From: an uncultured Candidatus Saccharibacteria bacterium
Lineage (GTDB): Bacteria; Patescibacteriota; Saccharimonadia; Saccharimonadales; CAYLGV01
DNA length: 64,000 nucleotides
Reading direction: 5' to 3'
Assembly (NCBI GenBank): GCA_964394925.1
Contig: CAYMZG010000004.1
Location: forward strand, 31,208 to 95,207
Part shown: positions 1,600 through 47,432 of the stretch, piece by piece
Layout of the letters: each line of letters opens with the position of its first letter
Position numbering within the stretch: the stretch's first letter is position 1
Position numbers and translations under genes: made by a program
Notes under the pieces: generated by a model
Databases searched by the model: none
Told to the model about the DNA's origin: nothing
Seen by the model: the letters and a program-made list of their open reading frames with translations, nothing else

Positions 1600-3105
1600 C
1601 TATTTGGCGCTTGAGCGAGGAGGCAATGGCGGCAGATGGGGTATGACATGCATGACCGGTATGCAAATATTGCGGTCCTTCCAGGTGACGGTAAGAAACT
1701 CATACATGACCATCGAGGCGATGCCAATGATCATTTCAGTTATCACAACAATTGGGAAATTCCATAGCGCCACCCAACGATTACTTGGATTGGTGGCCGA
1801 GACGATTTTGAAATGCGTGGCTACGAGGAAAGCACATGAGAGAACCGGCAGAATGATTGGGATATGCGGCCAGAACCATAGGCTTCCCACAACTTGTATG
1901 AATGGCATTAGCAGAAAAGCCATGACCCCGAAAGTGAGAAGCAGCGCCCACTCGGGGCGTCGCCGAATCTGGGCGTAACGCATGCGCAGGGCAGTCTTGC
2001 GTTGTTCCTGCAAATTCTTAACCGTATCAACCTCGAGTTCTCCATGGCTACGTATAAAGCTATACTCGTCGGTTTTAACGAGCTCGCGGGCAAAATAGCC
2101 CTCAGGGATAATGGCGTGGCTGACGCTTCCAAAGCCGCCCAACTTCTTGAGCCTCGAGCGACGAATCAGCCAACAGGTACTCAGAACTGGTGGGCGATTA
2201 AACCAGCGCCTCGGCAAAGCCAACTCCCACCAGTAGCGCATTGGCTGAATGAAAGCCGCTGAAACATCGTTATTAACCCGAACGGGCAAGACGCTCAACA
2301 TAGCCTTATTGCGTTCATGCATCAGATTTACCATCTGCCGAATAGCACTCGTGCCGAAGCGGACGTCTACGCCACAAAACAGCATAACTTCTCCAGTGGC
2401 TTCTTTGTAGAGCTTCTCGTAAGCTTGGTTTTTAGCCAGCCAACGATCAGCCGGCTCTTCGCCCTGCACAAAACGAACGCCGTCATGTGCGAAACTCTTA
2501 ATGATATCGGCCGTTCGTCCTTGTGAGCAGTCGTCGAGAACAATTACTTCAAGCTTGGGATAGTCATTCGCTAACACACTCTTCAGGCACTCCTCTAAGT
2601 CAGTTGTTTCGTTGCGCGCCGGAATTGCAACGGTCACAGTTGGCAGCTCACGATCCACCAAAAATGTCTTTGACGGTTGGTAGACAATTTTTTTTAGATT
2701 ACGTGAAGTAACGACGAACAAACCAAGCGCCACGGAAAACTGTACGAATAGGAAGATGTTGAGGAGTAACTGTCGTGAAGTAGTTGAAATAGCTGGCAGT
2801 AAAAATAACCATGCTAATAGCACAAAGAACACAAAGATCCACCAGCTGGTACGCCCGACTGCAAAGTGCAGATACTTTTCGTGCATACGACCCTTTAAGA
2901 TACGTGACAGATTGCCGAAACGCAGTATGGTGAGGAGCAAAACAGGGATACCCGCTGCCCAGCCGAGTTGCAGCGCCAGCCACCAGGTTGTCCAGGCGAT
3001 AAATAACATAACTAGTACGGCACCAAGACGTCGAAAGTGCCAAATTGGAGGCACGATAATCAGTAAAGCTTCTGCGGCAAAGGTGAGGATCCAGAGTTCC
3101 AACAT
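1600..3105 (-). CDS. Membrane-embedded family-2 glycosyltransferase
   Basis: N- and C-terminal TM bundles flank a GT2 core (VAIPARNE, VLDDCS, GVDVRF). A QPMRYW segment is reminiscent of processive synthases. Confidence 0.75.
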   Translation of the reverse strand: MLELWILTFAAEALLIIVPPIWHFRRLGAVLVMLFIAWTTWWLALQLGWAAGIPVLLLTILRFGNLSRILKGRMHEKYLHFAVGRTSWWIFVFFVLLAWLFLLPAISTTSRQLLLNIFLFVQFSVALGLFVVTSRNLKKIVYQPSKTFLVDRELPTVTVAIPARNETTDLEECLKSVLANDYPKLEVIVLDDCSQGRTADIIKSFAHDGVRFVQGEEPADRWLAKNQAYEKLYKEATGEVMLFCGVDVRFGTSAIRQMVNLMHERNKAMLSVLPVRVNNDVSAAFIQPMRYWWELALPRRWFNRPPVLSTCWLIRRSRLKKLGGFGSVSHAIIPEGYFARELVKTDEYSFIRSHGELEVDTVKNLQEQRKTALRMRYAQIRRRPEWALLLTFGVMAFLLMPFIQVVGSLWFWPHIPIILPVLSCAFLVATHFKIVSATNPSNRWVALWNFPIVVITEMIIGIASMVMYEFLTVTWKDRNICIPVMHVIPHLPPLPPRSSAK

Positions 3106-6441: not shown

Positions 6442-7425
6442 ATGGCAGAAGCCAAGAAGAAAACCGCAGCTGAAGAAAAAGCTCAGCTCGAAGCAATCAA
6501 GAATGCTGCAACCGAAGTAGTAGCCGAAGAAGCAACGGAAGTCGTTGAAGAAGCTGCCGCTGAAGAAACTGAAGCAAATACAGCGAAGACGACCGCTAAG
6601 GCCGGCAAGCGAAGCGCAAAAGCTATCGCAGAGGTTGAAGCCAAGCAAGCCAAAGAAGAACGCAAGGCCGCGTCTAAAGAAGCTGACGCCGAGAAAGAAG
6701 CTCAGCCAAAGCCAGTCCAAAAAAGCCGCAGCGTTTTAGAGCGCAAAGGCAAGAAGTTCCGTAAAGTTGCTGAACTCGTTGAAAAAGACAAGCAGTACAA
6801 TCTGAAAGACGCGCTTGACCTTGCCACCAAGACCAATCCTGCTAGATTTGACGCTGCTGTTGAACTGCACGTTCGCCTTGGTGTTGACCCACGCCAGGCT
6901 GATCAGAACCTGCGTGACATTGTGTTGTTACCGGCTGGTACTGGCAAAACAGTTCGAGTAGCAGTTTTTGCTGATCCAGAGGGTACTAAAGTAGCCAAGA
7001 AGGCCGGTGCAGACATTGCTGCCAGCGATGAGTTCCTGCAACAGCTCGACAAGGGTACGATCGACTTTGATATTCTGATCTCAACACCTCAGAACATGGC
7101 CAAGCTCGGTAAGTATGCCCGTTTACTTGGACCGAAGGGTCTGATGCCGAACCCAAAGAGTGGTACGGTTACAACTGATATTGCTAAGGCTGTAGCCGAA
7201 GCGAAGGCTGGTCGTGTTGAGTATCGCGTAGATAGCACCGGCATTGTGCACGTAGCCGTTGGCAAGGTAAGCTTTGGCGCCGATAAGCTCCAGCAAAACG
7301 CCCGAGCCATTCTTGATAGCATTAAAGGCAATAAGCCAAGTACTATCAAGGGCACCTATGTTAAGTCTGTATATGTTACGACCAGCATGGGCCCAAGTAT
7401 CGCGATCGAAACATCCGAAGTATAA
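6442..7425 (+). CDS. rplA: 50S ribosomal protein L1 with ~100-aa A/E/K-rich N-terminal extension
   Basis: ATG after AAAGGAGA. The canonical L1 core begins near [24 protein letters not shown] and continues through VLLPAGTGK and [15 protein letters not shown]. Confidence 0.9.
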
Positions 7426-7443
7426 AGTAGTTGCGATTCTACT

Positions 7444-10849: not shown

Positions 10850-13177
10850 ATGGGACGCGGAACATTTTTGGTAGTTGAAGGAACTGATGGCTCGGGCAAG
10901 GGCACGCAAGTTGCCAAGTTGGTTGAGCGCCTTGAACACGAAGGCTACGATGTGGCTGCGTTTGATTTTCCACAGTATGAGCAGCCGTCTTCATACTTCG
11001 TACGTGAATATTTAAATGGTAAATACGGCTCGGCCGAAGAAGTTGGCCCGTACACTGGATCGTTATTTTATGCCCTGGATCGTTATCAGGCGGCACCGGC
11101 AATCCGCGAAGCACTCGATGCCGGTAAGGTAGTTATTGCTAACCGTTTTACAGGCAGCAATATGGCACATCAAGGCACCAAGTTCGATGAAAGTGAACAC
11201 CGACGTGGCTACTTTATTTGGCTCGATAATCTCGAGTTTGAAATGCTCAAGATTCCACGCCCCGATCGCTCGATTGTACTCAGAGTACCGGCTGAAATCG
11301 CCCAAAAACTCGTTGATCAAAAAGATGCCCGCTCCTACACCGACAAGAAGCGCGACCTGCATGAAGCAGATTTGAGCCATATGCAGCGTGCAGTTGAGGT
11401 ATACGATGACCTCTGTCATTTGTTCCCCAAAGATTTTGTACGCGTTGACTGTGTCCGCGACGAAAAACTGCTGGAAATCGATACCATACACAAACTACTG
11501 TGGCAGGCAATTGAACCATTATTGCCACCGAAGCCAAAGCAATCAAGTGCTGCCGCTGCTGCCATGGCAACAAAACCAACGACACCCAAGCTTGAAAATC
11601 CATACGTGACCAAAGAGGGCGATCGCTACACCATAACCGCTGCCGGCGAAGCTTTCCTCAAAGACAGCGTGACCAGCGTTGACGGTAATGTGTATGCCTT
11701 TAATGACAATATGAGTCCGCTGACGGTGGCCGCTGCCATGGCGCGCTTGAGCCGCCGCGGCGACGATATGCGCATTACCATTCTTGACGAGTTTGCTGCA
11801 GCCATGGGCAAAGACGAGAAACTCTTACAGCGCGTAATCACCGCCTACGGGGATGATTCGGTGCAACAGCTAGTTGGCCAACACCTAGTAGTGGAGGGCG
11901 CCAGCAACCTACTCACCAAGAAGTTAGAATGGGGGCGCTTGGCGGCCTATCTTGAACAGTCAACGCGCTACATTTACTTTGATCAAAAAGATGCAAACGG
12001 CAAATATAAGTACTACACACCTACCGACTTAGATGCCAAAACAAGGGACAACTACGAAGAAGTTATGAATCGCATCTTCGATCTGTACTCTGAAATGGTC
12101 CGAAAAACCACCGCCTACGTACGCAGCAATTCCGATACACCTAAGGAAGAACAGGATGTAGCCTGGCAAGGTGCCACGCGCGCCCAGGCCTGCGACGCGA
12201 TCAGGCCAGTTCTGCCCGTGGCGACCAAGTCAACGGTCGGCATTTTTGCATCAGGCCAAGCCCTGGAAAGCCTCATTATGCACCTCATGAGCGATGACTT
12301 GCTCGAAGCCCGCGAGGTTGGAGCACAAATCCTTGAACAAGCGCGGAAGGTCATTCCAACGTTTCTGGAACGCGCCGACAAGCCCGACCGCGGCGGCGCC
12401 ACAATGGCATACGTGTCTAACACGCGTCGTTCCGTGAAAGATCTCGCCGAAAAATACCTGCCAGAGAATCATGCCAGCGAGACCGATGCCGTAACACTCA
12501 CGTCGGTTTGGCCACGGAACGAGCTCGATCTCGTACCCGACATGTTGTACGAACACAGCAACCTGCCATTACGTGACTTGCAGGCGGAGGTAGCCACCTG
12601 GCCAGTTGCCCGTCGGATGGACGTCTTTGAAGCATATATGGGCGAACGACTTAACCGCCGCCATCGCCCCGGCCGCGCTCTGGAAAAGGCCCACTACAGC
12701 TGGGATCTCGTGTGTGACTATGGCATCTTTCGTGATCTGCAACGTCACCGAATGGTAGACGACATGAACTGGCAACTACTCACTCCACGCTATGGCTACG
12801 ATGTGCCGCAGCTCGTTGAAGATGCGGGTATGACTGACCTATTTGAGGAATGCTTTGACCTCAGTCTGCAGCTCTTCAGTACAATGCAGGCGGCAGGCTA
12901 TGATCTAGAGGCACAGTACGCAACACTGCTCGGTCATAAGATGCGCTGGAAGGTTACCTACAATGCTCGTGAGGCTTTCCATCTGCATGAACTACGCACC
13001 AGTCCACAAGGTCATCCTGGCTACCGAAAACTTGTACAACAAATGCATGAACGCTTAAGTGAAGTGCACCCAATGATGGCCGAGGCCATGAAGTTTGTAA
13101 ACCAAGGTGAAGACGAAGCCCTAACCAGACTCGCTGCCGAACGCTATACGCAGTTTAAATTAAATCAGTTGAGCTAA
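10850..13177 (+). CDS. thyX: Fusion protein: thymidylate kinase (N-terminal ~210 aa) + flavin-dependent thymidylate synthase ThyX (C-terminal ~530 aa, two Thy1-like halves)
   Basis: Tmk P-loop VVEGTDGSGKGTQ and the DRY-type motif LDRYQ. ThyX-type elements ARLSRRG, EQSTRY, FRDLQRHRMV and LHELRTSPQGHPGYR. Single uninterrupted 775-codon ORF. Confidence 0.85.
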   Translation: MGRGTFLVVEGTDGSGKGTQVAKLVERLEHEGYDVAAFDFPQYEQPSSYFVREYLNGKYGSAEEVGPYTGSLFYALDRYQAAPAIREALDAGKVVIANRFTGSNMAHQGTKFDESEHRRGYFIWLDNLEFEMLKIPRPDRSIVLRVPAEIAQKLVDQKDARSYTDKKRDLHEADLSHMQRAVEVYDDLCHLFPKDFVRVDCVRDEKLLEIDTIHKLLWQAIEPLLPPKPKQSSAAAAAMATKPTTPKLENPYVTKEGDRYTITAAGEAFLKDSVTSVDGNVYAFNDNMSPLTVAAAMARLSRRGDDMRITILDEFAAAMGKDEKLLQRVITAYGDDSVQQLVGQHLVVEGASNLLTKKLEWGRLAAYLEQSTRYIYFDQKDANGKYKYYTPTDLDAKTRDNYEEVMNRIFDLYSEMVRKTTAYVRSNSDTPKEEQDVAWQGATRAQACDAIRPVLPVATKSTVGIFASGQALESLIMHLMSDDLLEAREVGAQILEQARKVIPTFLERADKPDRGGATMAYVSNTRRSVKDLAEKYLPENHASETDAVTLTSVWPRNELDLVPDMLYEHSNLPLRDLQAEVATWPVARRMDVFEAYMGERLNRRHRPGRALEKAHYSWDLVCDYGIFRDLQRHRMVDDMNWQLLTPRYGYDVPQLVEDAGMTDLFEECFDLSLQLFSTMQAAGYDLEAQYATLLGHKMRWKVTYNAREAFHLHELRTSPQGHPGYRKLVQQMHERLSEVHPMMAEAMKFVNQGEDEALTRLAAERYTQFKLNQLS

Positions 13178-14714: not shown

Positions 14715-14739
14715 CACCAGGGGTGATTCGTGCTAGAGT
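14711..14739 (+). promoter_or_regulatory. Promoter of the rplJL operon
   Basis: TTGACA (14711-14716), 17-nt spacer, TAGAGT (14734-14739). Confidence 0.55.
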
Positions 14740-14744
14740 CATAG

Positions 14745-14875
14745 GGTTACCAAAGACAGTAGCGGCCGCGGATCGATACTCCAACGCTTAAGAATGCTAC
14801 CGAGGCACACATCCAGTAAAACTGTTTGTTTTTGTTTGTGAGCACTAGCCCTTGGTCAACGCCAGGGGCTTTTTG
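14745..14875 (+). ncRNA. Ribosomal protein L10 leader-like cis-regulatory RNA with terminator/attenuator
   Basis: ~200-nt untranslated leader before rplJ. Helix GTAGC (14759-14763)/GCTAC (14796-14800) encloses CGCTTAAGAATGC, which resembles the 23S GCUUAGAAGC L10/L11-region sequence. Followed by hairpin AGCCCTTGG/CCAGGGGCT plus TTTTT (14847-14875). Confidence 0.5.
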
Positions 14876-14945
14876 GTACAAGACAGCTACTAATAACAAG
14901 GTCGAAAGTATCTGTCTTAACTCATAAAAGTAAGGGAAGCATTAC

Positions 14946-19699: not shown

Positions 19700-21058
19700 A
19701 TGGAACCAAAGGGGGTCGCTCTACCACCACAAAATACCGATGCCGAAGCGAGTTTGCTCGGCGCGATTTTGATTGATACCGACGCCTTGGTACGTATTGC
19801 CGACAAAATCGCAGCTGATGATTTTTACGATGAGAAACACCGCTACATTTATGAAGCGATTATTCAATTATATGAAAAGCACAGCCCGATTGATGTTTTA
19901 ACCCTTGCAGACCAGTTGAAAGCCAATGGCACCCTCGATGCAATTGGCGGTTCATCATACCTTGCTGAGCTGACAAACTTTGTGCCGACTGCCAGCCATG
20001 TCGAACAATACGCCGACATTGTGGCCCAAAAGTCATTGCGCCGAAAACTTATTAAGGCTGCTCAAGACATCACGGGCCTTGGGTATAACGAAAGTACCGC
20101 CTTACAAGAATTAATTGAAGAGGCTGAGGCGCGCTTGTTTGAGGTAAGCCAAAAGCACATCAAGCAAGACATCACCAGCTTAGAAACCATCTTGAGTGAA
20201 AGTTTTGACCGTCTTGATGAACTCCACAAAGACAAAGGCAAGATCCGCGGTGTGCCGACCGGCTATAAGGATATGGACAATATTTTGGCCGGGTTGCAGC
20301 GCTCAGATCTGTTCATCCTGGCTGCAAGACCGTCGATGGGCAAAACCGCCCTGGCGTTGAACCTCGCCCACAACGTGTCCGTACAAGCCAAACAACCGGT
20401 GCTTATTTTTAGCCTCGAAATGAGCAAAGAACAGCTAGTGGACCGTATGCTTGCTATGGAATCAGGTGTGGATGCCTGGGCGCTCAGGACAGGCAACCTC
20501 ACGGACTCTGACTTTGAGAAAATTGGCCAGGCCATGGGCACGCTGAGCGAGGCCGAGATATACATTGATGATACGCCTGGTATTACCGTCAGTGAACTGC
20601 GCACCAAGGCGCGCCGCGAAGCCCACCTACATGATCTCGGCCTGATTATTGTTGACTATTTGCAGCTGATGAGTGGCGGTAATAAGTTTGGCGGTGAAGG
20701 TAACCGTGTGCAGGAAATTAGTGAAATATCCCGTGGTCTCAAGGGCGTTGCACGTGAGCTGAACGTGCCGCTCATTGCGCTCAGTCAGCTCAGTCGTTCG
20801 GTTGAAAGTCGAAGCCCGCAGATTCCACAGCTGGCCGACCTTCGTGAATCCGGTTCGATCGAGCAGGATGCCGACGTGGTAGCCTTCATTTACCGTGAAG
20901 ACTATTACAATCCCGAAACAGATCGCCGTAATGTCACTGATATTTTCATTAAGAAACACCGTAATGGCCCCACCGGTGCCGTTGAACTTTACTTCGACAA
21001 AGACAAGCAGCGCTTCCGAAGCCTGGACACCAAACACTCGCAGCCCTTCGAATCGTAA
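19700..21058 (+). CDS. dnaB: Replicative DNA helicase DnaB
   Basis: PPQNTDAEASLLGAIL N-terminus, Walker A ARPSMGKTA, IIVDYLQLM, SQLSR. Confidence 0.95.
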   Translation: MEPKGVALPPQNTDAEASLLGAILIDTDALVRIADKIAADDFYDEKHRYIYEAIIQLYEKHSPIDVLTLADQLKANGTLDAIGGSSYLAELTNFVPTASHVEQYADIVAQKSLRRKLIKAAQDITGLGYNESTALQELIEEAEARLFEVSQKHIKQDITSLETILSESFDRLDELHKDKGKIRGVPTGYKDMDNILAGLQRSDLFILAARPSMGKTALALNLAHNVSVQAKQPVLIFSLEMSKEQLVDRMLAMESGVDAWALRTGNLTDSDFEKIGQAMGTLSEAEIYIDDTPGITVSELRTKARREAHLHDLGLIIVDYLQLMSGGNKFGGEGNRVQEISEISRGLKGVARELNVPLIALSQLSRSVESRSPQIPQLADLRESGSIEQDADVVAFIYREDYYNPETDRRNVTDIFIKKHRNGPTGAVELYFDKDKQRFRSLDTKHSQPFES

Positions 21059-32492: not shown

Positions 32493-32567
32493 TAGGGCGT
32501 GGCCAAGTGGTAAGGCACCAGGTTTTGGTCCTGGCATTCGGGGGTTCGAATCCCTCCGCCCTAGCCA
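32493..32567 (+). tRNA. tRNA-Gln (anticodon UUG), CCA encoded
   Basis: Cloverleaf read by hand: acceptor TAGGGCG/CGCCCTA with the U1:A72 pair typical of tRNA-Gln, D-arm GCCAAGTGGTAAGGCA, anticodon arm CCAGG-TTTTGGT-CCTGG, T-arm GGGGG-TTCGAAT-CCCTC, then GCCA. Aligns position by position with E. coli tRNA-Gln. Confidence 0.92.
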
Positions 32568-32610
32568 AAAAGGTTTGGCAGTGAGCATCGCTTGCTGGCA
32601 AACCTTTTTT
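32568..32610 (+). terminator. Intrinsic terminator after tRNA-Gln
   Basis: Stem AAAGGTTTGGCAG/CTGGCAAACCTTT (one mismatch) followed by TTTTTT. Confidence 0.65.
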
Positions 32611-32693
32611 ACTTGGCTGAAGGATTATATGAACGAGGTTCGGCGTAGCGGCGGCTTTGCCGTCCGCGGAGAAGCCCACCTTTGGTAGGCGCT

Positions 32694-32764
32694 ATCCCTC
32701 CGTCCTAGCCATAAGCATTTTGACCTCTGTTCGCAGAGGTTTTTGTTTTCGGTCGTGCTTGCAA
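32694..32764 (+). repeat. Cassette-array repeat copy A (carries tRNA 3'-end duplicate instead of the 5' box)
   Basis: ATCCCTCCGTCCTAGCCA (32694-32711) matches tRNA positions 32550-32567 at 17/18. It continues TAAGCATTTTGACCTCTG-TTCG-CAGAGGTTTTTGTTTT ... GCTTGCAA. Confidence 0.8.
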
Positions 32765-32809
32765 TCCGAGACTTACTACAAGACAATATGTCTATAAAGG
32801 AGTAAAGAA

Positions 32810-33121
32810 ATGGAACGCAAAGATATAGCATCTTCATACGGGCCGCGTGAGCCGCGACACGACAGAGTGTCTTTTGATGGAAGTGGTCGAGAAGCAGAAC
32901 TTCTCGTTACTGGATTACGAGCACTTGCAGCACAAATTGCGATTCGTGATGTAACCACGGAGGCTAGCAATGGCTATTTTTATCCACACGGTTCACGACA
33001 CCAAGGAGACGGTGTTCCTCTTGCTGGAGAAATAGCAACTCTGCTTGCACAGATTGAGAATCCAAATTTTGTTGAAGCCGAGACGGCATCCGAAACTCCA
33101 AAACCTGTAGTCAGTAGCTAG
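32810..33121 (+). CDS. Cassette 1: hypothetical protein (103 aa)
   Basis: ATG after AAGGAG. No motif recognised. Confidence 0.5.
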   Translation: MERKDIASSYGPREPRHDRVSFDGSGREAELLVTGLRALAAQIAIRDVTTEASNGYFYPHGSRHQGDGVPLAGEIATLLAQIENPNFVEAETASETPKPVVSS

Positions 33122-33146: not shown

Positions 33147-33234
33147 GTTCCGAAGTACATCAACCAAAGGTAGCCATAAGCACTTTAACCTCTGTTATGT
33201 CAGAGGTTTTTGTTTTTTGATATAATGATTATAT
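33147..33234 (+). repeat. Cassette-array repeat copy B
   Basis: GTTCCGAAGTACATCAACCAAAGGTAGCCATAAGCACTTTAACCTCTG-TTATGT-CAGAGGTTTTTGTTTTTT, then TGaTATAAT (extended -10) inside the palindrome ATATAATGATTATAT. Confidence 0.85.
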
Positions 33235-33484
33235 GGCTGAGGTAATCACACCAAATAGAACCGATATGCTTCTTGGAGTAATTAACGAGACACCTCCAGA
33301 AGAGCTGACTTCAAGCTATTTACTTGAAACGATGAAGGGCTATGAGGCGTTCTCGAAGTTTACACGGCGTGCTGTTATTGAATCATTGGCGCATCTAGAG
33401 ACTAATGGCCGTGTTGCGTTTGACCCTAAATTACACATCACCGACATTGGCTCGCAACGCCTCCATGACGTTGGGCTAATTTAA
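33233..33484 (+). CDS. Cassette 2: small protein (83 aa), possible winged-helix
   Basis: The ATG lies 6 nt after TATAAT (leaderless-looking). The FSKFTRRAVIESLAHLETNGRV segment looks like a wHTH recognition helix plus wing. This is inference only. Confidence 0.45.
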   Translation: MAEVITPNRTDMLLGVINETPPEELTSSYLLETMKGYEAFSKFTRRAVIESLAHLETNGRVAFDPKLHITDIGSQRLHDVGLI

Positions 33485-33499
33485 CGCATTAGCTCTCAA

Positions 33500-33590
33500 G
33501 TTCCGAAGTACATCGACCAAACCTAGCCAAGCATAAGCGGGATGAAGACTTCTTCGGAAGTCTTTTGTTTTCGTATACAATAAATGCATG
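33500..33590 (+). repeat. Cassette-array repeat copy C (divergent hairpin stem, same architecture)
   Basis: GTTCCGAAGTACATCGACCAAACCTAGCCAAGCATAAGC, then hairpin AAGACTTC-TTCG-GAAGTCTT plus T-run, then TACAAT and the ATGCAT palindrome. Confidence 0.75.
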
Positions 33591-34085
33591 TACAGTAAAG
33601 ATCTTGAGGGTAATCAGTATATAATATCTGACGATCAACTTTCTTGGCGACCTTCCGCTTACGGCATAGTAATTATGGATAATAAGATCCTTTTGGTGAG
33701 AGAAAATGGCAAATACCATCTTCCTGGAGGTGGCTTGGACTTTGGAGAAGACCCTAAAAACGCGGTGATACGTGAAGTAAGAGAAGAGACCGGCATAACA
33801 ACGGAGGATCCCATAATAATTGATGTAGTTAGCTCATTCTTTAGCTACGGTGCTAATGATAACCCTCCTAACTTGCAACACGTGAACTCACTACTTATCT
33901 ACTATTCCTGTAAATTTGTGAGCGAAGACGCAGGAGATATCAAATTAGATGAATATGAGAGAGAGGCTGGCTTATCACATGAATGGGTAGAAGTTAGTCA
34001 ACTTAATGAAATAACTGTCGGAACTACTGTTGACTGGCGCCCTCTCATAGCCCAGGTAGTTCCGAAGTACATCAACCAAAGGTAG
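33588..34085 (+). CDS. Cassette 3: NUDIX hydrolase
   Basis: Nudix box GGGLDFGEDPKNAVIREVREETGI. The ATG lies 6 nt after TACAAT. The last 8 codons plus the stop are encoded by repeat copy D. Confidence 0.8.
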   Translation: MYSKDLEGNQYIISDDQLSWRPSAYGIVIMDNKILLVRENGKYHLPGGGLDFGEDPKNAVIREVREETGITTEDPIIIDVVSSFFSYGANDNPPNLQHVNSLLIYYSCKFVSEDAGDIKLDEYEREAGLSHEWVEVSQLNEITVGTTVDWRPLIAQVVPKYINQR

Positions 34086-34142
34086 TCATAAGCACTTTAA
34101 CCTCTGTCCGCAGAGGTTTTTGTTTTACGCATATGCTTGCAA
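34059..34142 (+). repeat. Cassette-array repeat copy D
   Basis: GTTCCGAAGTACATCAACCAAAGGTAGTCATAAGCACTTTAACCTCTG-TCCG-CAGAGGTTTTTGTTTT-AC-GCATATGCTTGCAA. Confidence 0.85.
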
Positions 34143-34561
34143 TATATCCAACGCGGGACTTTAATAGTGTTATGCCAAGGAAAAGATGGGACAACCCTAC
34201 TACTATCAGCTTGTTTGAAGTTCATGATGAATTTCCATATGGCAGGCCACCCGTGATACACACCGAAGACATGACTCCAGAAGCGGTCAATGCTCGTGTC
34301 GCAAACAGAATGAACCAGCTACTAATGGAGCAGGTTGTAAAAACATTTGATGCCTATAGGGAAGATCCTGACACTCCACAAACCGTACTCCAGTCTCTAG
34401 CTGCTGGGGAGAATCTCTCTCTGAGCCAGATTGCAGCAATGCTTCAGGTCGTTCCGAGCACTGTTGAGCAAGATTTAGGTGTATTATGCGAAGTAGGTTG
34501 GGTGGCTGTAGATGACGATGGTATTATTCCAAAATATTCAATGATTGCCACTGAACGTTAG
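34133..34561 (+). CDS. Cassette 4: hypothetical protein with C-terminal winged-helix-like segment
   Basis: The ORF opens at the repeat-borne ATG (34133). The alternative start at 34172 lies 6 nt after TTGCAA-17-TTTAAT. The LSLSQIAAMLQVVPSTVEQDLGVLCEVGWV segment looks HTH-like. Confidence 0.5.
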   Translation: MLAIYPTRDFNSVMPRKRWDNPTTISLFEVHDEFPYGRPPVIHTEDMTPEAVNARVANRMNQLLMEQVVKTFDAYREDPDTPQTVLQSLAAGENLSLSQIAAMLQVVPSTVEQDLGVLCEVGWVAVDDDGIIPKYSMIATER

Positions 34562-34565
34562 AAAG

Positions 34566-34648
34566 GTTCCGAAGTACATCAACCAAAGGTAGCCATAAGC
34601 ACTTTGACCTCTGTTCGCAGAGGTTTTTGTTTTTGCATATGCTTGCAA
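34566..34648 (+). repeat. Cassette-array repeat copy E
   Basis: GTTCCGAAGTACATCAACCAAAGGTAGCCATAAGCACTTTGACCTCTG-TTCG-CAGAGGTTTTTGTTTTT-GCATATGCTTGCAA. Confidence 0.85.
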
Positions 34649-34677
34649 CCGAAAAACCAAAGGTATTAACTAGTCGT

Positions 34678-35085
34678 ATGAGTACAACAACCATCGAGAC
34701 AACCAAGACAGAAAAAGAAACACCCATCGAGAAACTTCAACAGGTTCGAAGAGCTGGGCTATTCATTGGTTCAGTTTGGGCATACGGACTTAAGGATGGG
34801 GATACATTCACCAAGGCTAAAGCGCTATGGACACCTACGGGCTACAATGTTGATAGTGGAAGACTTGCGGTATCAATTAATGAATGGGGGCCCGTACCAA
34901 TAAACGGCGCAGAGCAAATGGTTGTGGGCACTGGGGAGTTGGAGCGTGGGCAACAGCTACTCATGGACATTTTTGAAACTATGGCAAATAGGGGCATCAT
35001 TCAAATGGTAGCCGCGCCAGAGGTGCCGCCAACATATGAAGATAACTTGACTGCGATGCTTGTTGAAAGAGACGCTACTATCTAA
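34678..35085 (+). CDS. Cassette 5: hypothetical protein with NEWGPVP motif
   Basis: The ATG at 34678 lies 6 nt after TTGCAA-17-TTAACT. The ORF is also open from the repeat-borne ATG at 34639. Confidence 0.5.
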   Translation: MSTTTIETTKTEKETPIEKLQQVRRAGLFIGSVWAYGLKDGDTFTKAKALWTPTGYNVDSGRLAVSINEWGPVPINGAEQMVVGTGELERGQQLLMDIFETMANRGIIQMVAAPEVPPTYEDNLTAMLVERDATI

Positions 35086-35108: not shown

Positions 35109-35181
35109 GTCCGATGGGGACGTAGCAATAAGCGTTTTGACCTCTGTTCGCATAGGTCTTTGTTTTTGCTATTGCTTGTAG
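35109..35181 (+). repeat. Cassette-array repeat copy F (degenerate)
   Basis: GTCCGATGGGGACGTAGCAATAAGCGTTTTGACCTCTG-TTCG-CATAGGTCTTTGTTTTTGCTATTGCTTGTAG. The hairpin has one mismatch. Confidence 0.65.
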
Positions 35182-35203
35182 TTTAGTAGGCAATACTTAT
35201 AAT
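35176..35203 (+). promoter_or_regulatory. Putative promoter of cassette 6
   Basis: TTGTAG (aligned with TTGCAA of the other copies), 16-nt spacer, TATAAT (35198-35203). Confidence 0.4.
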
Positions 35204-35221
35204 TATGCGCATGGAGAAAAT

Positions 35222-35629
35222 ATGACATCTGAGAAAACCCCACAGACTAAAGAACCATTTTCGGTAGAACGAATGGATCTACGTCAAACCGCACGTGTAT
35301 TGGGCGCAATGACCGGATATTTAGAGGCAGAGGCGACAGTGCGTGCTGCACATGGCATGAAAGAGGACGGTCCGCTCTTAGAACAAGTACGTGCTGAATA
35401 TGACCGCATTACACGATTAGTCGAGGACTCCGAGCCAGGCATTCGAGAAGACTTCTTTGCCGAACACCAGCCAAGATATGACGTACTAGATGGTATCTAC
35501 GACTGTGCGAGTGAAACATGCCCGCGCGTCGGCTACGAATCTCCCGAGTCCCGAAAAGAACATCATCGTATGTGGGGATTCGACAATCCGCTCATCGATA
35601 TACGGCAAACTCAATCACAAACTGAATAA
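35222..35629 (+). CDS. Cassette 6: hypothetical protein (135 aa)
   Basis: ATG after GGAGAAAA. No motif recognised. Confidence 0.5.
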   Translation: MTSEKTPQTKEPFSVERMDLRQTARVLGAMTGYLEAEATVRAAHGMKEDGPLLEQVRAEYDRITRLVEDSEPGIREDFFAEHQPRYDVLDGIYDCASETCPRVGYESPESRKEHHRMWGFDNPLIDIRQTQSQTE

Positions 35630-35672
35630 TTCCAGCGTAATACTGACCAAAGGTAACCAAAACAGCATATGC
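35629..35672 (+). repeat. Cassette-array repeat vestige G (5' box and GCATATGC junction, hairpin missing)
   Basis: ATTCCAGCGTAATACTGACCAAAGGTAACCAAAACAGCATATGC aligns with the 5' box (..ACCAAAGGTARCCA) and with the junction palindrome. Confidence 0.45.
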
Positions 35673-35956
35673 CAAACTACGAGGAACCCTATCTACAGAT
35701 TGAACATGATATGAGCGAAAATAGCCTGAAGCAACTGAGCTTCACAAAGACGCTCGGCTATGTGGGGGTTGGATTATGCGTGATAAGTTCAGTTGGTGAA
35801 ATGATCGTAGGTGCTACCGATAAGATTGCCAGCAATGCCATACCGCTCGCACTGAGTGCAGCGGTTATTTATGCATCTAATCGAAGAATGAGAGATCATG
35901 AGCAGAGGCTAGAGGAAATACAGGTTCTGTCTGAATACGAGAAGGAGCTTGGCTAA
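35669..35956 (+). CDS. Small membrane protein (95 aa)
   Basis: The start ATG is the one inside GCATATGC. Two hydrophobic segments. Confidence 0.45.
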   Translation: MPNYEEPYLQIEHDMSENSLKQLSFTKTLGYVGVGLCVISSVGEMIVGATDKIASNAIPLALSAAVIYASNRRMRDHEQRLEEIQVLSEYEKELG

Positions 35957-36032
35957 GTAACACGCGCCGCTCGCATATTATTATGCTGCGCAATACATCG
36001 GTGCTATCATTGACCAAATAACAGGAGAGTGT

Positions 36033-37070
36033 ATGGAAGTTCGCCACCTTATTCATCAAGTGACAGAGTCGGTAAAAGTCGGGCTTGAGTTAGGTCGAGA
36101 GACCACGCCACACATCGATGCACAGTTCATGGCAATTGCCAACCGTGAAGCCTCTAAGCCGGGTGCCTTCTTTGGTGTTGTTGGTGAAGAACAATTGCAG
36201 CCACCGAACCGACCGGACGCTATTAATCATAACCTGACGCTACTGCCTCCCAATGCCCTAAACAACCGAGAGATTAATGAGGCACTCAGCCTTGTAGATA
36301 TTATGCTTGGCACAGAACAAACGGCCCAAATCACGGAAAAGTTTGCTGAAGCAGCTGACGAGGTTGGCATTTTTGACAGGTTACAGCATGACCACAAGCG
36401 ACAGGGTGCAAAGTTAATTGTATTGAGTAATCACTTGGAACTACCAGACCAGGGCTTCACGATGGGCTTTTTGCACAAGGCGGCCGCCGAGCACGGTGTA
36501 GAACGACTTGAGAATTATCTGACTGCCGTAATTGGTCGTGTGGTTGGTTACTTTACGCTTGGCGAAACAAACGTTATTGATGGCATTTTACGCAGAGCTG
36601 GCAGCATTCTAAAGACATTTCCACGAGGGGGTAGTGAAGCACTCACCGAAGATGAGGAATTTGCCTTGGCCCTTTATCGGGGATACTGCAATCACAAAAC
36701 AAAAGAAGCGTTTTCTGATCTGATGAGCACCCAAGATGGTCGTATAGTTACCATTGCTCCAAGCGGCGAGCAGGACCATTTTGATGCCGAAGAAGGCACC
36801 GTAAAAATGCGTGCCTTTGGCGACGGAACCTGCAACATGATCATAGATGCCTGCAAAAGGGGCGCCATGGTTTTGCCGGTATTTGTGGACTACAGCACAA
36901 CCTCGAGTATTGTGGAGTTTCTTGAGCCACGTACCACAACGAGCACAGAAGATTGTCATGCCATCGGCCAGGAATTAGCCGCCGTTGGTACCGATGCTCG
37001 TGCCATCAAAACCAAAGAGTTACCCGAAGAAAAGCGCTATCAAGCCAGCATTAGCTATAGCAGCAACTAG
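36033..37070 (+). CDS. PlsC-like (LPLAT-family) acyltransferase candidate
   Basis: SNHLELPD (NHx4D), TFPRGGSE (FPEGT-like) and VLPVFVDY (VPV-like) occur in the expected order. RBS AGGAGAG. Confidence 0.5.
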   Translation: MEVRHLIHQVTESVKVGLELGRETTPHIDAQFMAIANREASKPGAFFGVVGEEQLQPPNRPDAINHNLTLLPPNALNNREINEALSLVDIMLGTEQTAQITEKFAEAADEVGIFDRLQHDHKRQGAKLIVLSNHLELPDQGFTMGFLHKAAAEHGVERLENYLTAVIGRVVGYFTLGETNVIDGILRRAGSILKTFPRGGSEALTEDEEFALALYRGYCNHKTKEAFSDLMSTQDGRIVTIAPSGEQDHFDAEEGTVKMRAFGDGTCNMIIDACKRGAMVLPVFVDYSTTSSIVEFLEPRTTTSTEDCHAIGQELAAVGTDARAIKTKELPEEKRYQASISYSSN

Positions 37071-37585
37071 TCGCGCGTGCCATACAACATACCAATCGGC
37101 ACTGCACAAATGGCCAACACCAACACGAGCCCAGGGATAAAGAACGGCAAAAACTCTGAGTTTGGTGTGGGGTGGTTTTGGTAGAGCCACCACAGTGCGC
37201 TCGCTACGGTCAAAACCAAAAATAAAGCAGCACCAACATGTGTGAAGGCAAACACTTTGTCGACCCAATCAATCTTGGCGGTTGATCGGCGAACGTAGAA
37301 AATGTAAATGTAGCAAACTGCGCGCAGGCCAAGAAATATTGCAGCTAGGAAGGCTGGCCAAAACAGGGCAGTTGCCAATGAATCGATAGAAGTTGTGAAC
37401 ATCATGAGCAACATCACCACCGCAAAAACTAACAGCGTGTGCGTAAACTCCCAGGTTGCAGTTACATAGCCGTTACGGCCACGACGCGGATATTTGAGAC
37501 GATAAAAACTAAGGAACGTTTCGTACAAGAAGGCGACCACAAATATAAGCGTAGGCACCAAGAAAAGTACTAGCGCGGCGGTCAT
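37067..37585 (-). CDS. Short 5-TM partner subunit of cytochrome bd-type oxidase (in the CydB position)
   Basis: ATGA overlap with the cydA stop. 172 aa with five hydrophobic helices. About half the length of canonical CydB. Confidence 0.55.
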   Translation of the reverse strand: MTAALVLFLVPTLIFVVAFLYETFLSFYRLKYPRRGRNGYVTATWEFTHTLLVFAVVMLLMMFTTSIDSLATALFWPAFLAAIFLGLRAVCYIYIFYVRRSTAKIDWVDKVFAFTHVGAALFLVLTVASALWWLYQNHPTPNSEFLPFFIPGLVLVLAICAVPIGMLYGTRD

Positions 37586-38973
37586 TTCTTGGCTCCTTTC
37601 TTGGCAGGTGCTTTGGTAGCCAGCTTAGCCTTATTGTCTGGTCGAGCACCAGCCCGCTCATCATCAATAATCCGCTTTACGCCCCAAATAGTCACCACAA
37701 ATAGTGCCAAGTAAGCGAGTGGGAAGATATAGCCAAAGCTGCGAACATCGTGCGTTTTTGTTAAGGCTTCCTGTGTGGTTACATAGGCACGCACGGCCCA
37801 CGGCTGACGGCCAATTTCGGTCATCATCCAGCCAAGTTCAACCAGAATAATACCAAGGGGAGCCAACACCACCAGCGTTAGCAGGTACAAGTTAGAAGTG
37901 GCCCACTTACGGCGCCACAGCCACACTGCTCCTAGCCCTACAAAGGCAATAGCCATAAAGGTAATAATGGTCATTTTAATGTCGAACAAGGTGTGCACAT
38001 ACAGCGGTGGTCGCTCGCTCTCTTTAAATTCGTTCAAGCCTTGCACCTTGGTGTCGGGACTATTGCCAGCCAAAATACTGAGGGCATTTGGGATTTCAAA
38101 ATGCGGACCGGCAATTGTTTGGTCTGGTTGCCCAACCCCTCCGATGAGGAGCGGTGCATTACTGCGCGTATTATAGTTAAGCTCAATAGCTGCTAGTTTG
38201 GCTGGTTCGTATTTTGCTAGGTATTTTCCCGTTAGATCGGCGGTTATACCAGAGAGCAAAAACATCACGAGCGCAAATACAACAAGGCGTTTCAACACAA
38301 ATCGATCAGTGGCCGAGGCCTTGGCACGGCGATCTTTGCGGCGCTTAAGAAGTAGCTTGAACGCATATGCACCTATAATTAGAAGCGAAGCCGCCACATA
38401 GTAACCGGGCATGGAATGGAAGAACTCAATCAGAGCCGTGCGCGAGAACATGGCATGCCATACGTTAATATTCACCAGTTCGCCGTTCTTATATTCAAAA
38501 CCAGTCGGCAGGTTCATCCAACCGTTAATGCTCGTGATGGCGTAAGCACTCAAAGTACTGCCAATGACTACACCAATACCGAACAGCCAGTGAACCCATT
38601 TCGAGATGCGCTTGTTGTTCCAGGTGCTCATATAGAGTGCTAAGAAGCTGGCTTCAATTAGGAACGCGTAGGTCTCGAACATAAATGGCAGGCCAATAAC
38701 CTTGCCGCCAAACTTGAGAATACCGGGCCATACCAGTGACATCTGAAGGGCAATGACAGTCCCCGATATAACGCCCGTTATAACCAAGAGGGCCATGAAT
38801 TTTGACCAGAACTTGGCAACACCAATCAGCTTGTCGTCTTTGCGACGAATGCCCATGTATTCAAACCAAACTACCAGAACAGGGAGCGCCAGGCTCATAA
38901 GTACAAATATTATGTGAAAGCCAAGGCTGTCACCCATTAAAACGCGGGCCGCCACAAGCGGTGAATGATCCAT
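37582..38973 (-). CDS. cydA: Cytochrome bd-type quinol oxidase subunit I
   Basis: N-terminal LGFHIIF (heme-ligand His), FMFETYAFLIEA, short Q-loop with KYEPAKLAAIE, GWMMTEIGRQPW. K/A-rich C-terminal tail. Confidence 0.9.
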   Translation of the reverse strand: MDHSPLVAARVLMGDSLGFHIIFVLMSLALPVLVVWFEYMGIRRKDDKLIGVAKFWSKFMALLVITGVISGTVIALQMSLVWPGILKFGGKVIGLPFMFETYAFLIEASFLALYMSTWNNKRISKWVHWLFGIGVVIGSTLSAYAITSINGWMNLPTGFEYKNGELVNINVWHAMFSRTALIEFFHSMPGYYVAASLLIIGAYAFKLLLKRRKDRRAKASATDRFVLKRLVVFALVMFLLSGITADLTGKYLAKYEPAKLAAIELNYNTRSNAPLLIGGVGQPDQTIAGPHFEIPNALSILAGNSPDTKVQGLNEFKESERPPLYVHTLFDIKMTIITFMAIAFVGLGAVWLWRRKWATSNLYLLTLVVLAPLGIILVELGWMMTEIGRQPWAVRAYVTTQEALTKTHDVRSFGYIFPLAYLALFVVTIWGVKRIIDDERAGARPDNKAKLATKAPAKKGAKK

Positions 38974-46406: not shown

Positions 46407-47432
46407 CTAAGCAGCCGCTTCACCATCTTCGACAGGTAATCGCGCTTCGACTTCCAGTGATCCGTCGGTCAAATTAATGAGCGTTGCGAGTGCGTCAGCA
46501 AGTATAAATGGTGCATCATCGCCAAAGTTTTCCATAATGTACCAAACGTCTAACCCAAAGGCATTGTATTCACCATCGGTGAGCATGTTCATTTTGCCAC
46601 TATTTAGGGTTGTCCCGTGAACAAAGTTAAGGACCACTTTAAACTCATTGTGATTGCCGGTCTTCACGCGTTTTGCATCTTTATTGAACTTCTCTAGATA
46701 CTCTAGAATGTCTGGCTTGCCAGCAAAGTAACTGTTGGATATTTCAGATAGAGCCTTAGCATTCTGTTGGAGTGTCTCAGCAAAGTTATCGTGCAGCTTC
46801 TTTCCGGCGAGATCCATGACTGCACCAGTAACACCACTGATCGCATCGACTAAACCAGCATCCTCATAATAGCCAAGTTTTACTTCTTGCCCCTTAAGTG
46901 CACCACAACCAAACTCACCATCTGGCGTATGGTCATCGGTATGACCAGAAGGAAGGTATTTTTGAGATGTGTTGCTCACTAATTCATCAATGTCTGACTC
47001 GAGCTTTGCGTCAACATCTACACCTTTGCGCAGGCGACGGGCGACTGCAATGTCTGGAGTACCACCCTGGACCTGTGGGCCAACCTCATATGACTTCGGA
47101 TCCTCGTCGTCATATCCCAAAATACCTCGGCCATCAACACAACGCAGGCTTGCGCCAGGCGTTGTTGGTACGTAGCTTTTATGCAAGGCCTCGTTTGCTT
47201 GAGCCAAACCTTCAATGGTTGCCGAGCCTGTTTCCAGGCGACGTGTTATTGAAATGTTTCCCCTAAATGTAACATCAGGTAGTAAATCACTTAGTTTTCC
47301 GAGCGATACGACTTTTGCTTCTTGTGACATTACTTCAAACTCTCCTTTAAGTTGCACAAATGGATCAGTCAGCAGGTGATCACTACCTGTTTCTACGTTT
47401 AAATCAAAAAGTGGTGGGGTGTGTTCTGGCAT
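46407..47432 (-). CDS. Hypothetical protein (341 aa) with CVDGR ... GCGA signature
   Basis: Clean ORF. It has a weak resemblance to the beta-carbonic-anhydrase CxDxR/HxxC ligand pattern, unverified. Confidence 0.5.
   Translation of the reverse strand: MPEHTPPLFDLNVETGSDHLLTDPFVQLKGEFEVMSQEAKVVSLGKLSDLLPDVTFRGNISITRRLETGSATIEGLAQANEALHKSYVPTTPGASLRCVDGRGILGYDDEDPKSYEVGPQVQGGTPDIAVARRLRKGVDVDAKLESDIDELVSNTSQKYLPSGHTDDHTPDGEFGCGALKGQEVKLGYYEDAGLVDAISGVTGAVMDLAGKKLHDNFAETLQQNAKALSEISNSYFAGKPDILEYLEKFNKDAKRVKTGNHNEFKVVLNFVHGTTLNSGKMNMLTDGEYNAFGLDVWYIMENFGDDAPFILADALATLINLTDGSLEVEARLPVEDGEAAA

Follow-up and report, generated by a model that had tools for sequence, protein, structure and literature searches.

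In the 64,000-nucleotide (nt) stretch of DNA analysed here (the window), an intact tRNA-Gln(UUG) gene is followed by a near-perfect second copy of its own 3′ end and by an array of seven co-oriented one-gene cassettes. The window comes from an uncultured Candidatus Saccharibacteria bacterium (GCA_964394925.1, contig CAYMZG010000004.1, positions 31,208-95,207, forward strand), and the flanking D-Ala-D-Ala carboxypeptidase gene ("PBP") assigns it to Candidatus Saccharimonadales. Such a repeat is the textbook mark of integration at tRNA genes, a well-known process that here takes an unusually tidy form. We consider it probable, with moderate confidence, that the island as a whole was built by serial site-specific integration at tRNA-Gln, the repeated 18-mer being a displaced tRNA end. 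Literature searches found no description of the locus in Saccharibacteria.

Comparison contigs are given L-numbers. L001, L002, L018, L019, L023 and L027 carry the islands of relatives, L032-L035 are viral, L043 is a sister strain (a Logan contig from a different study) and L044 is a lysogen. Relatives were ranked by PBP protein identity to the window, at 89% for L001, 55% for L002 and 46% for L019 (GCA_023253175.1). tRNA genes were called with ARAGORN and Rfam, and junctions were sought with an nhmmer profile built from the five junction modules of the window alone.

The duplicated tRNA-Gln 3′ end

Three adjacent features make up the head of the island:

32493-32567 (+): tRNA-Gln(UUG), the intact putative target gene and attL-like side (ARAGORN, ttg; Rfam tRNA, 63.6 bits)
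32568-32693 (+): spacer X, 126 nt, non-coding; a terminator hairpin from 32568 to about 32610, then 83 nt of lineage-specific DNA
32694-32711 (+): second tRNA-Gln 3′-end copy, the left part of junction A, attR-like; 17/18 match to tRNA positions 59-76 including CCA

The gene is the sole tRNA in the window by ARAGORN. Its 3′-terminal 18 nt, ATCCCTCCGCCCTAGCCA (32550-32567), recur on the same strand as ATCCCTCCGTCCTAGCCA (32694-32711) with one mismatch. This repeat is far above chance: the 18-mer has a single other match in the window at three or fewer mismatches, against an expectation of 0.03 per window, and none of 100 shuffles gave two. The 17/18 duplicate reported in the original prediction is thus real, and the copy does, as proposed there, run straight from its CCA into TAAGCATTTTGACCTCTG..., the sequence common to the array repeats. 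It lies 3′ of the intact gene, on the same strand, and ends at the gene terminus, as is expected of a direct repeat at a tRNA attachment (att) site; the same holds in L002 and L019. The repeated segment begins just past A58 of the tRNA, and the same 3′-terminal 18 nt are copied by retroviral primer-binding sites. An origin by tRNA-primed reverse transcription is very unlikely, given that the open reading frames (ORFs) have the wrong orientation for tRNA-primed cDNA and that a reverse transcriptase is absent.

The spacer begins with a strong hairpin and T-run that form the present terminator of tRNA-Gln in the predicted fold. A gap of about 126 base pairs (bp) had been foreseen correctly, but it had been said to hold just the tRNA terminator, whereas 83 further nt lie beyond the hairpin. 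It contains no ORF, shows no homology detectable by nhmmer to the spacers of L001, L002 and L019, and has no significant similarity to tRNA positions 1-57. Fold z-scores without the terminator (-0.98 in the window, -0.61 in L001 and -1.27 in L019) were not significant against shuffles. Rfam, searched at E <=5, gave nothing for the spacer or the second copy, the tRNA itself being the only match there. Two motifs seemingly common to the spacers in an alignment, GAACGAGGGGTTCGGC and GTAGGCG, were unsupported by nhmmer. A pseudo-tRNA or structured-RNA spacer is rejected on the Rfam null, the insignificant folds and the lack of tRNA likeness; the spacer is read as a probable remnant of the most recent insertion.

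Evidence that this tRNA is used by phages comes from a scan of viral contigs with its last 23 nt. Four contigs of 22-44 kb (L032-L035) each carry the 34-nt block GCATTCGGGGGTTCGAATCCCTCCGCCC(T/C)AGCCA and no complete tRNA, and in each the block adjoins a tyrosine integrase of about 290 amino acids (aa; PF00589, E 6e-32). These integrases are 44-53% identical to one another and belong to a family of about 80 clusters at >=43% identity, found mostly on 30-49-kb contigs. The block corresponds to the 3′ 34 nt of the window's tRNA-Gln (32534-32567), the last 18 nt of which (32550-32567) are the duplicated segment, and it is identical to the window's tRNA end in L032, L035 and the lysogen L044. On the 431-kb contig L044 the integrase follows phage portal and terminase genes; 155 nt further on come the full block (11008-11041) and a terminator, and then host genes, with no array beyond. 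Judged from this order of genes and blocks, the arrangement is a classical attR and tRNA-Gln a genuine phage attachment site. GenBank phages yielded no close integrase relative (at most 34% identity) and no att match, the sole hits being true tRNA-Gln genes.

The synteny of the PBP and tRNA-Gln genes is conserved down to 46% PBP protein identity, and in four relatives a second copy of the tRNA end lies 22-165 nt past the genome's own tRNA-Gln:

L001, 9595-9577: second copy with one extra base
L002, 2546-2529: second copy, 17/18 to its own, different tRNA
L019, 7651-7634: second copy, 18/18, extending into the T loop
L027, 7534-7517: second copy, 15/18, 22 nt downstream of the tRNA

Identity between copy and tRNA starts at tRNA position 59 in four of the five genomes (the window, L001, L002 and L027), as expected for a fixed core boundary. 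The L002 copy, AACCCTCCTCCCCAGCCA, lies 162 nt downstream and carries that genome's own acceptor variant (CTCCCCA), unlike the tRNA end of the window. In the original prediction, a second copy in related genomes that have no array was taken to indicate an ancient duplication unrelated to integration. L027 does lack a module-type array, as L002 largely does, and both have a copy, but the L002 copy is that of its own tRNA, the spacers are unrelated and both islands are still variable. Together with the fixed start base, the own-tRNA copy of L002 and the unrelated spacers argue for recurrent events over one ancient fixed duplication.

The contigs of five further relatives, reached through the PBP gene (L003, L016, L017, L022 and L024), end within or exactly at the end of tRNA-Gln and so tell nothing of the islands. 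Their break points are spread over the gene (CCA, anticodon arm, T loop, T stem). These ends fit strain heterogeneity or k-mers shared beyond that point. Short-read assemblies would therefore systematically miss such islands.

The cassette array and its junctions

The cassettes fill the DNA from the second copy up to a conserved 345-aa gene and are mostly parted by junctions, here lettered A-G:

32705-32775 (+): junction A, TAGCCA-TAAGCATTTTG, terminator 32722-32741 with T-run, then TGCTTGCAA (nhmmer E 8.6e-21; terminator scan)
32810-33121 (+): cassette 1, 103-aa ORF, no family match (Pfam, PHROGs, PADLOC)
33147-33237 (+): junction B, GTTCCGAAGTACATCAACCAAAGGTAGCCA as left part, followed by the module with terminator 33187-33208 (terminator scan, profile)
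33233-33484 (+): cassette 2, 83-aa ORF
33500-33575 (+): junction C, same left part as B but CCTAGCCA, then AGCATAAGC, different terminator 33544-33565 (terminator scan)
33588-34085 (+): cassette 3, 165-aa NUDIX hydrolase (PF00293, E 1.2e-17)
34059-34151 (+): junction D, GGTAGTCA variant and module (profile E 1.5e-19)
34172-34561 (+): cassette 4, 129 aa, weak winged-helix-turn-helix (HTH) matches; 142 aa if started at 34133
34566-34660 (+): junction E, the best copy, left part and module (profile E 8.3e-23)
34678-35085 (+): cassette 5, 135 aa; an HD-domain cassette takes its place in L043
35099-35193 (+): junction F, divergent left part GTTCATACTAGTCCGATGGGGAC, then GTAGCAATAAGCG and module (profile E 2.1e-18)
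35222-35629 (+): cassette 6, 135 aa; common to L043, 93% nucleotide identity
35646-35668 (+): junction G, eroded, ACCAAAGGTAACCA...GCATATGC, terminator hairpin lost (repeat comparison)
35669-35956 (+): cassette 7, 95 aa, probably a membrane protein; common to L043
36033-37070 (+): conserved 345-aa ORF, right-hand island border; 69% identical in L001

All seven cassettes lie on the tRNA strand, form units of about 350-530 bp and are mostly ORFans; the GC content of the island is 0.444, against 0.483 for the window. In a full junction, a left part and the core (T)AGCCA lead into TAAGCAYTTTG, after which come an intrinsic terminator (an 8-9-bp stem and T-run, five of which were found by terminator scan) and a -35-like box. 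This box, TGCTTGCAA, is present in junctions A, D, E and F, while -10 regions and start codons sit in cassette-specific DNA. The left part is the tRNA-end copy in A, GTTCCGAAGTACATCAACCAAAGG in B-E and GTTCATACTAGTCCGATGGGGAC in F. A single reading of the core had been given for copies B-E in the original prediction; the core is in fact GGTAGCCATAAGC in B and E, GGTAGTCATAAGC in D and CCTAGCCAAGCATAAGC in C. The repeat start given there, GGTTCCGAA, stands for E only, B, C and D starting with AGTTCCGAA. The divergent junction F and the eroded junction G are a sixth and a seventh site beyond the copies listed at that stage.

Junctions are 80-90% alike over about 64 nt. The module profile matched the five window junctions alone in the 64 kb, and it also matched four junctions of L019 (E 8.5e-7 to 0.011) and one of L001; every one of these matches has the orientation of the tRNA and falls within the island. 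Aligned-position identity across genera (83-86%) is an inflated measure, unrelated intergenic DNA having scored 76%, and was dropped in favour of these E-values. The junction type is thus confined to tRNA-Gln islands, including that of a different genus. Its presence in both L019 and the window at 46% PBP identity implies that it is either mobile between genera or strongly constrained. Searched against metagenomes, the left part GAAGTACATCAAYCAAAGGTA gave a chance match alone, on an AT-rich Flavobacteria-like contig (L015), and viral-contig scans with three junction patterns gave nothing relevant. A dif/Xer-type site was also considered and rejected: the junction has CATAA without a TTATG arm at 6-8 nt, and an inverted repeat in L019, GCATAAGCA/TGCTTATGC, with 27 nt between its arms, is not conserved in the window.

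Several details bear on expression. The NUDIX cassette 3 translates through the left part of junction D (34059-34088; ...VVPKYINQR), its stop being the TAG of the GGTAGTCA core. For cassette 4, the longest ORF uses an ATG that lies within the -35-like ATGCTTGCAA (34133); the start called by NCBI (34172, giving 129 aa) is compatible with a leaderless mRNA, a TTTAAT -10 box lying ahead of it. Cassettes 2, 3, 4 and 5 all look leaderless. A palindrome, GCATATGC, lies directly 5′ of the TTGCAA -35 box in junctions D (34130-34141) and E (34636-34647) and in L043 (about 950-962), with TTATGCTTGCA at the equivalent position in L019; it could serve as an operator or extend the promoter. Because the hairpin of junction G is lost, cassettes 6 and 7 probably share a transcript, and this hairpin-less arrangement is kept in L043. 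PHROGs and PADLOC gave no phage or defence family of note for the cassettes, and the cassette 4 and cassette 6 proteins have no relatives in the viral contigs. Cassette 4 is an ORFan in a strict sense, matching only itself among 5.8 billion protein clusters.

In the island of L001 the order is tRNA, a different terminator, about 150 nt, ATCCCTCCGCCCCCAGCCA, two unrelated cassettes (a NUDIX protein and a small membrane protein) with one junction variant, and the 345-aa gene. The terminator type of junction C also precedes the NUDIX cassette of L001. The window and L001 have no cassette in common, though the flanking proteins are 89% and 69% identical. In L019 the copy is fused to ATCATAAGCACTTTG, a terminator and TTATGCTTGCA, and at least five one-gene units with the same module follow; their left parts again start with GTTCG and end with AGCCA. 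L018 holds a Phd/RelE-type toxin-antitoxin pair between the tRNA and a partial tRNA end (about 6950-7440, minus strand). Such pairs (Phd/YefM with ParE/RelE) occur in the tRNA-Gln islands of both L018 and L023 (1582-2699), and both islands hold further tRNA-end-like remnants, e.g. GTTCGAGTCCTACCGCCACAGCCA.

Kinship between junctions and att sites was assessed by local alignment of the tRNA's last 26 nt to the left parts, with shuffles as the control. This gave p = 0.004 for window type 1 and p = 0.04 and 0.025 for two types from L019; for window F, L001 and L043, p was near 0.55. The Fisher combined p over the six junction types is 0.005. Islands from seven genomes (23.4 kb) contain 11 instances of GTTC-N12-24-AGCCA on the tRNA strand, against 21 in 295 kb of background, a 6.6-fold enrichment (Poisson P = 1.5e-6; about 7 of the 11 are independent types). 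These statistics lend moderate support to the suggestion that the array repeats descend from att sites, three of the six types showing no similarity. A further observation concerns the viral contig L034, where 14 nt of the window's junction core (32714-32727) recur as AGCATTTTGACCTC at 2470-2483 (minus strand), about 75 nt past the CCA of attP. About 0.8 matches of this type are expected by chance over all DNA examined, and about 3e-4 so near an att site; the match may link the right part of the junction to phage att-flanking DNA.

Cassette turnover is also seen between strains. L043 is 93% identical to window positions 35122-36844, a stretch that takes in cassettes 6 and 7 and reaches into the 345-aa gene; before it, an HD-domain cassette stands where the window has cassette 5. 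The similarity begins at 35122, the first base of the GTAG(C/G)(A/C)ATAAGC core. The upstream gene would therefore take along the variable stretch before the core, and the downstream gene the terminator and promoter; since the right part is generic, the exchange could lie anywhere between the core and the -35 box. The distal cassettes are common to the two strains and the proximal one differs, a pattern that, in this single comparison, fits insertion near the tRNA end. Within the window, three differing left parts (tRNA-like in A, type 1 in E and type 2 in F) are joined to nearly the same right part, which implies reassortment at the core.

Proposed construction of the island

On the reading that we favour, tRNA-Gln(UUG) would be the attachment site for integration driven by a tyrosine recombinase. 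Each insertion would supply a terminator, as phages do, and a 3′ end that makes the tRNA whole again, and the previous 3′ end would be displaced downstream; the copy at 32694-32711 would be such an end. Older units would be one-gene cassettes, mostly set apart by junctions in which a degenerate tRNA-end-like stretch (GTTC...TAGCCA) passes at its CCA into TAAGCA, a terminator and a -35 box. Gain, loss and exchange of cassettes would take place at these sites, the DNA breaking at the TAGCCA core or immediately after it. We infer both this crossover position and that cassettes, beyond phages, entered by site-specific recombination. The recombinase would act in trans, no gene for one lying nearby. 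The starting point of the original prediction, in which a direct repeat of a tRNA 3′ end is the scar of site-specific integration, is supported by the attP blocks and integrases of phages and lysogen, by the copies and remnants in relatives and by the turnover of cassettes.

A number of findings weigh against serial integration. The 126-nt spacer is far too small for an element. No integrase, resolvase or transposase (PF00589 included) was found among the 38 window ORFs tested, no recombinase in the island parts of the relatives' loci, and tblastn with the phage integrases returned nothing in the window or those loci. The phage block measures 34 nt against 18 nt for the second copy, which is thus not a fresh attR of that phage family, and cassette proteins and junction patterns are absent from the viral contigs scanned. 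Three of the six junction types have no tRNA-end similarity. Junctions B-E have one common non-tRNA left part and are therefore not independent decay products of a perfect tRNA end; they call either for homogenisation or for att sites that had already degenerated when they inserted at a secondary site, junction A for example. The L043 break lies at the start of generic junction sequence and is compatible with site-specific and homologous exchange alike. Cassettes 2 to 4 have one fixed order in three samples of the window's own population, and neither a precise empty/occupied pair nor a circular form was seen for this lineage among the contigs compared.

Homologous exchange would account for part of this. 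In such a scheme the junctions, of about 70-90 nt, would act as portable homology through which transformed DNA replaces or adds cassettes via RecA, the tRNA-end copy being an old phage relic. The absence of a recombinase nearby and the 80-90% likeness of the junctions over about 64 nt are in keeping with it, a breakpoint at the start of a generic junction such as that of L043 is equally expected, and the regulatory signals of the junctions could be conserved by selection. Natural competence has been reported in Saccharibacteria (PMC10633639). The scheme leaves unexplained, however, the GTTC starts and AGCCA ends of left parts that otherwise differ between two genera, the tRNA-end copy as first junction in the window, L001 and L019, and the match of the copy to the genome's own tRNA in L002 and L019. 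Moreover, homology arms of 60-90 nt at 80-90% identity are generally poor substrates for RecA. We hold homologous exchange to be possible but on balance unlikely. The second copy could instead be a structured non-coding RNA or pseudo-tRNA (a decayed tandem tRNA-Gln or a tRNA-like 3′ element), or a product of chance or slippage. The minimum-free-energy fold of 32611-32711 does pair UGGCU with AGCCA and closes three hairpins in a cloverleaf-like shape, and the L002 spacer starts with TTGGGAGTAGG, which resembles a tRNA 5′ end. The null results for fold, Rfam and spacer similarity given above nevertheless speak against it, ARAGORN likewise returns the true tRNA alone, no promoter-like site for such an RNA was found, and chance is excluded by the shuffle expectation; this set of explanations is highly improbable.

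A different role for the second copy is that of a maintained decoy, an attI analogue that spares the sole tRNA-Gln and at which a phage or chromosomal Xer-like integrase acting in trans would insert cassettes with imperfect att sites, the newest lying nearest the decoy. The window, L001 and L019 are alike in having the tRNA, a short spacer, a copy fused to the right part of a junction, and cassettes. The copy has stayed near-identical to the tRNA while the spacer diverged beyond recognition, cassettes 6 and 7 are common to L043 while the proximal one differs, and the ORFan cassettes, together with the toxin-antitoxin cassettes of relatives, recall chromosomal integrons. Recurrent independent events nonetheless explain the same facts without selection on the copy, the copies of L001 and L027 carry an extra base and three mismatches, an integrase linked to the array was not found and the polarity rests on one strain comparison. 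A maintained landing pad of this kind is accordingly very doubtful. Somewhat broader is the notion of a capture platform of Saccharimonadales with no resident integrase, in which a tRNA-end decoy would receive self-contained cassettes (terminator, promoter and a GTTC...AGCCA att site) inserted in trans and circulating between genera; this we regard as distinctly unlikely. Serial site-specific integration at tRNA-Gln therefore stays the reading we prefer.

Significance and comparison with known systems

Saccharibacteria are ultra-small epibionts with reduced genomes, and how they acquire genes is poorly understood, a question on which this locus bears. Here the sole tRNA-Gln(UUG) doubles as a phage att site, the hotspot behind it has wholly different content in L001, and its regular one-gene units carry expression signals. 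If the units are mobilised in trans, the locus would be a compact means of gene capture within the candidate phyla radiation, and genetic tools would gain a natural insertion site that is safe for the tRNA. If they are not, it would be a clean but ordinary tRNA-anchored island.

Other features of the window and its relatives lie apart from the island:

46407-47432 (-): 341-aa ORF with a cadmium carbonic anhydrase repeat match (PF18484, E 2.5e-10)
10850-13177 (+): 775-aa thymidylate kinase fusion with two ThyX (Thy1) stretches
37067-37585 (-): 172-aa CydB-like ORF, which may be truncated, adjoining a 463-aa ORF (37582-38973), a candidate CydA
14732-14884 (+): ribosomal protein L10 leader (RF00557, 53.5 bits), the sole other above-threshold Rfam match in the window
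19700-21058: 452-aa ORF, a candidate DnaB by synteny

The PF18484 family is known mainly from diatoms, and the match seems unexpected in Saccharibacteria. In L016, an 88%-related genome, DnaB has 799 aa with a LAGLIDADG match at 11277-11460, probably an intein.

Among known systems, sedentary chromosomal integrons and CALINs (clusters of attC sites lacking an integrase) share with the array co-oriented one-ORF cassettes of a few hundred bp that are mostly ORFans, toxin-antitoxin cassettes (here in relatives), junctions near-identical within a genome, a distinct first site at the head and complete turnover of content between relatives. In contrast to them, the array has no intI, its cassettes bear their own promoter and terminator (with a TTGCAA -35-like box) and its head site is a tRNA-end copy. 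The junctions show no attC architecture: GTTRRRY/RYYYAAC boxes are not at fixed positions, GTTRRRY is not enriched, and single-strand DNA folds give only the 7-8-bp terminator hairpin (z -1.4 to -1.9). The array is not an integron. The cis-mobilizable elements (CIMEs) of Streptococcus thermophilus are kilobase-long, att-bounded derivatives of integrative and conjugative elements (ICEs) that lack an integrase, lie in tandem at one att site and are thought to be mobilised in trans. They resemble the array in being integrase-less units with att-type bounds stacked at one chromosomal site, and differ from it in length and in a target other than tRNA-Gln; no ICE link was seen here.

Tyrosine integrases target tRNA genes, and direct repeats of tRNA 3′ ends flank phages, ICEs and pathogenicity islands, with cores typically of 16-50 bp ending at the CCA end. 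The locus matches such elements in a same-strand repeat that corresponds exactly to the tRNA 3′ terminus, in the matching attP and integrase of phage contigs and in the integrase-attR-host order of the lysogen; it departs from them in having 126 nt of non-coding DNA between the copies, no integrase in or near the island and an 18-nt repeat against the 34 nt of the phages. The tRNA 3′-end principle is also described for the tycheposon islands of Prochlorococcus, in which repeated integrations at the same site push older elements further in (10.1101/2020.12.28.424599); other tRNA-anchored hypervariable regions of streamlined genomes may be compared (10.64898/2026.04.03.716430). Like tycheposon islands, the array is a tRNA-side island of a small, streamlined genome, with degenerate partial tRNAs and strain-specific cargo. 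Unlike them, it has no hallmark genes for recombination or for replication and packaging, its ORFs being ORFans, NUDIX and HTH-like proteins, and it is composed of single-gene units of about 350-530 bp joined by a regular terminator-promoter junction that is conserved between genera.

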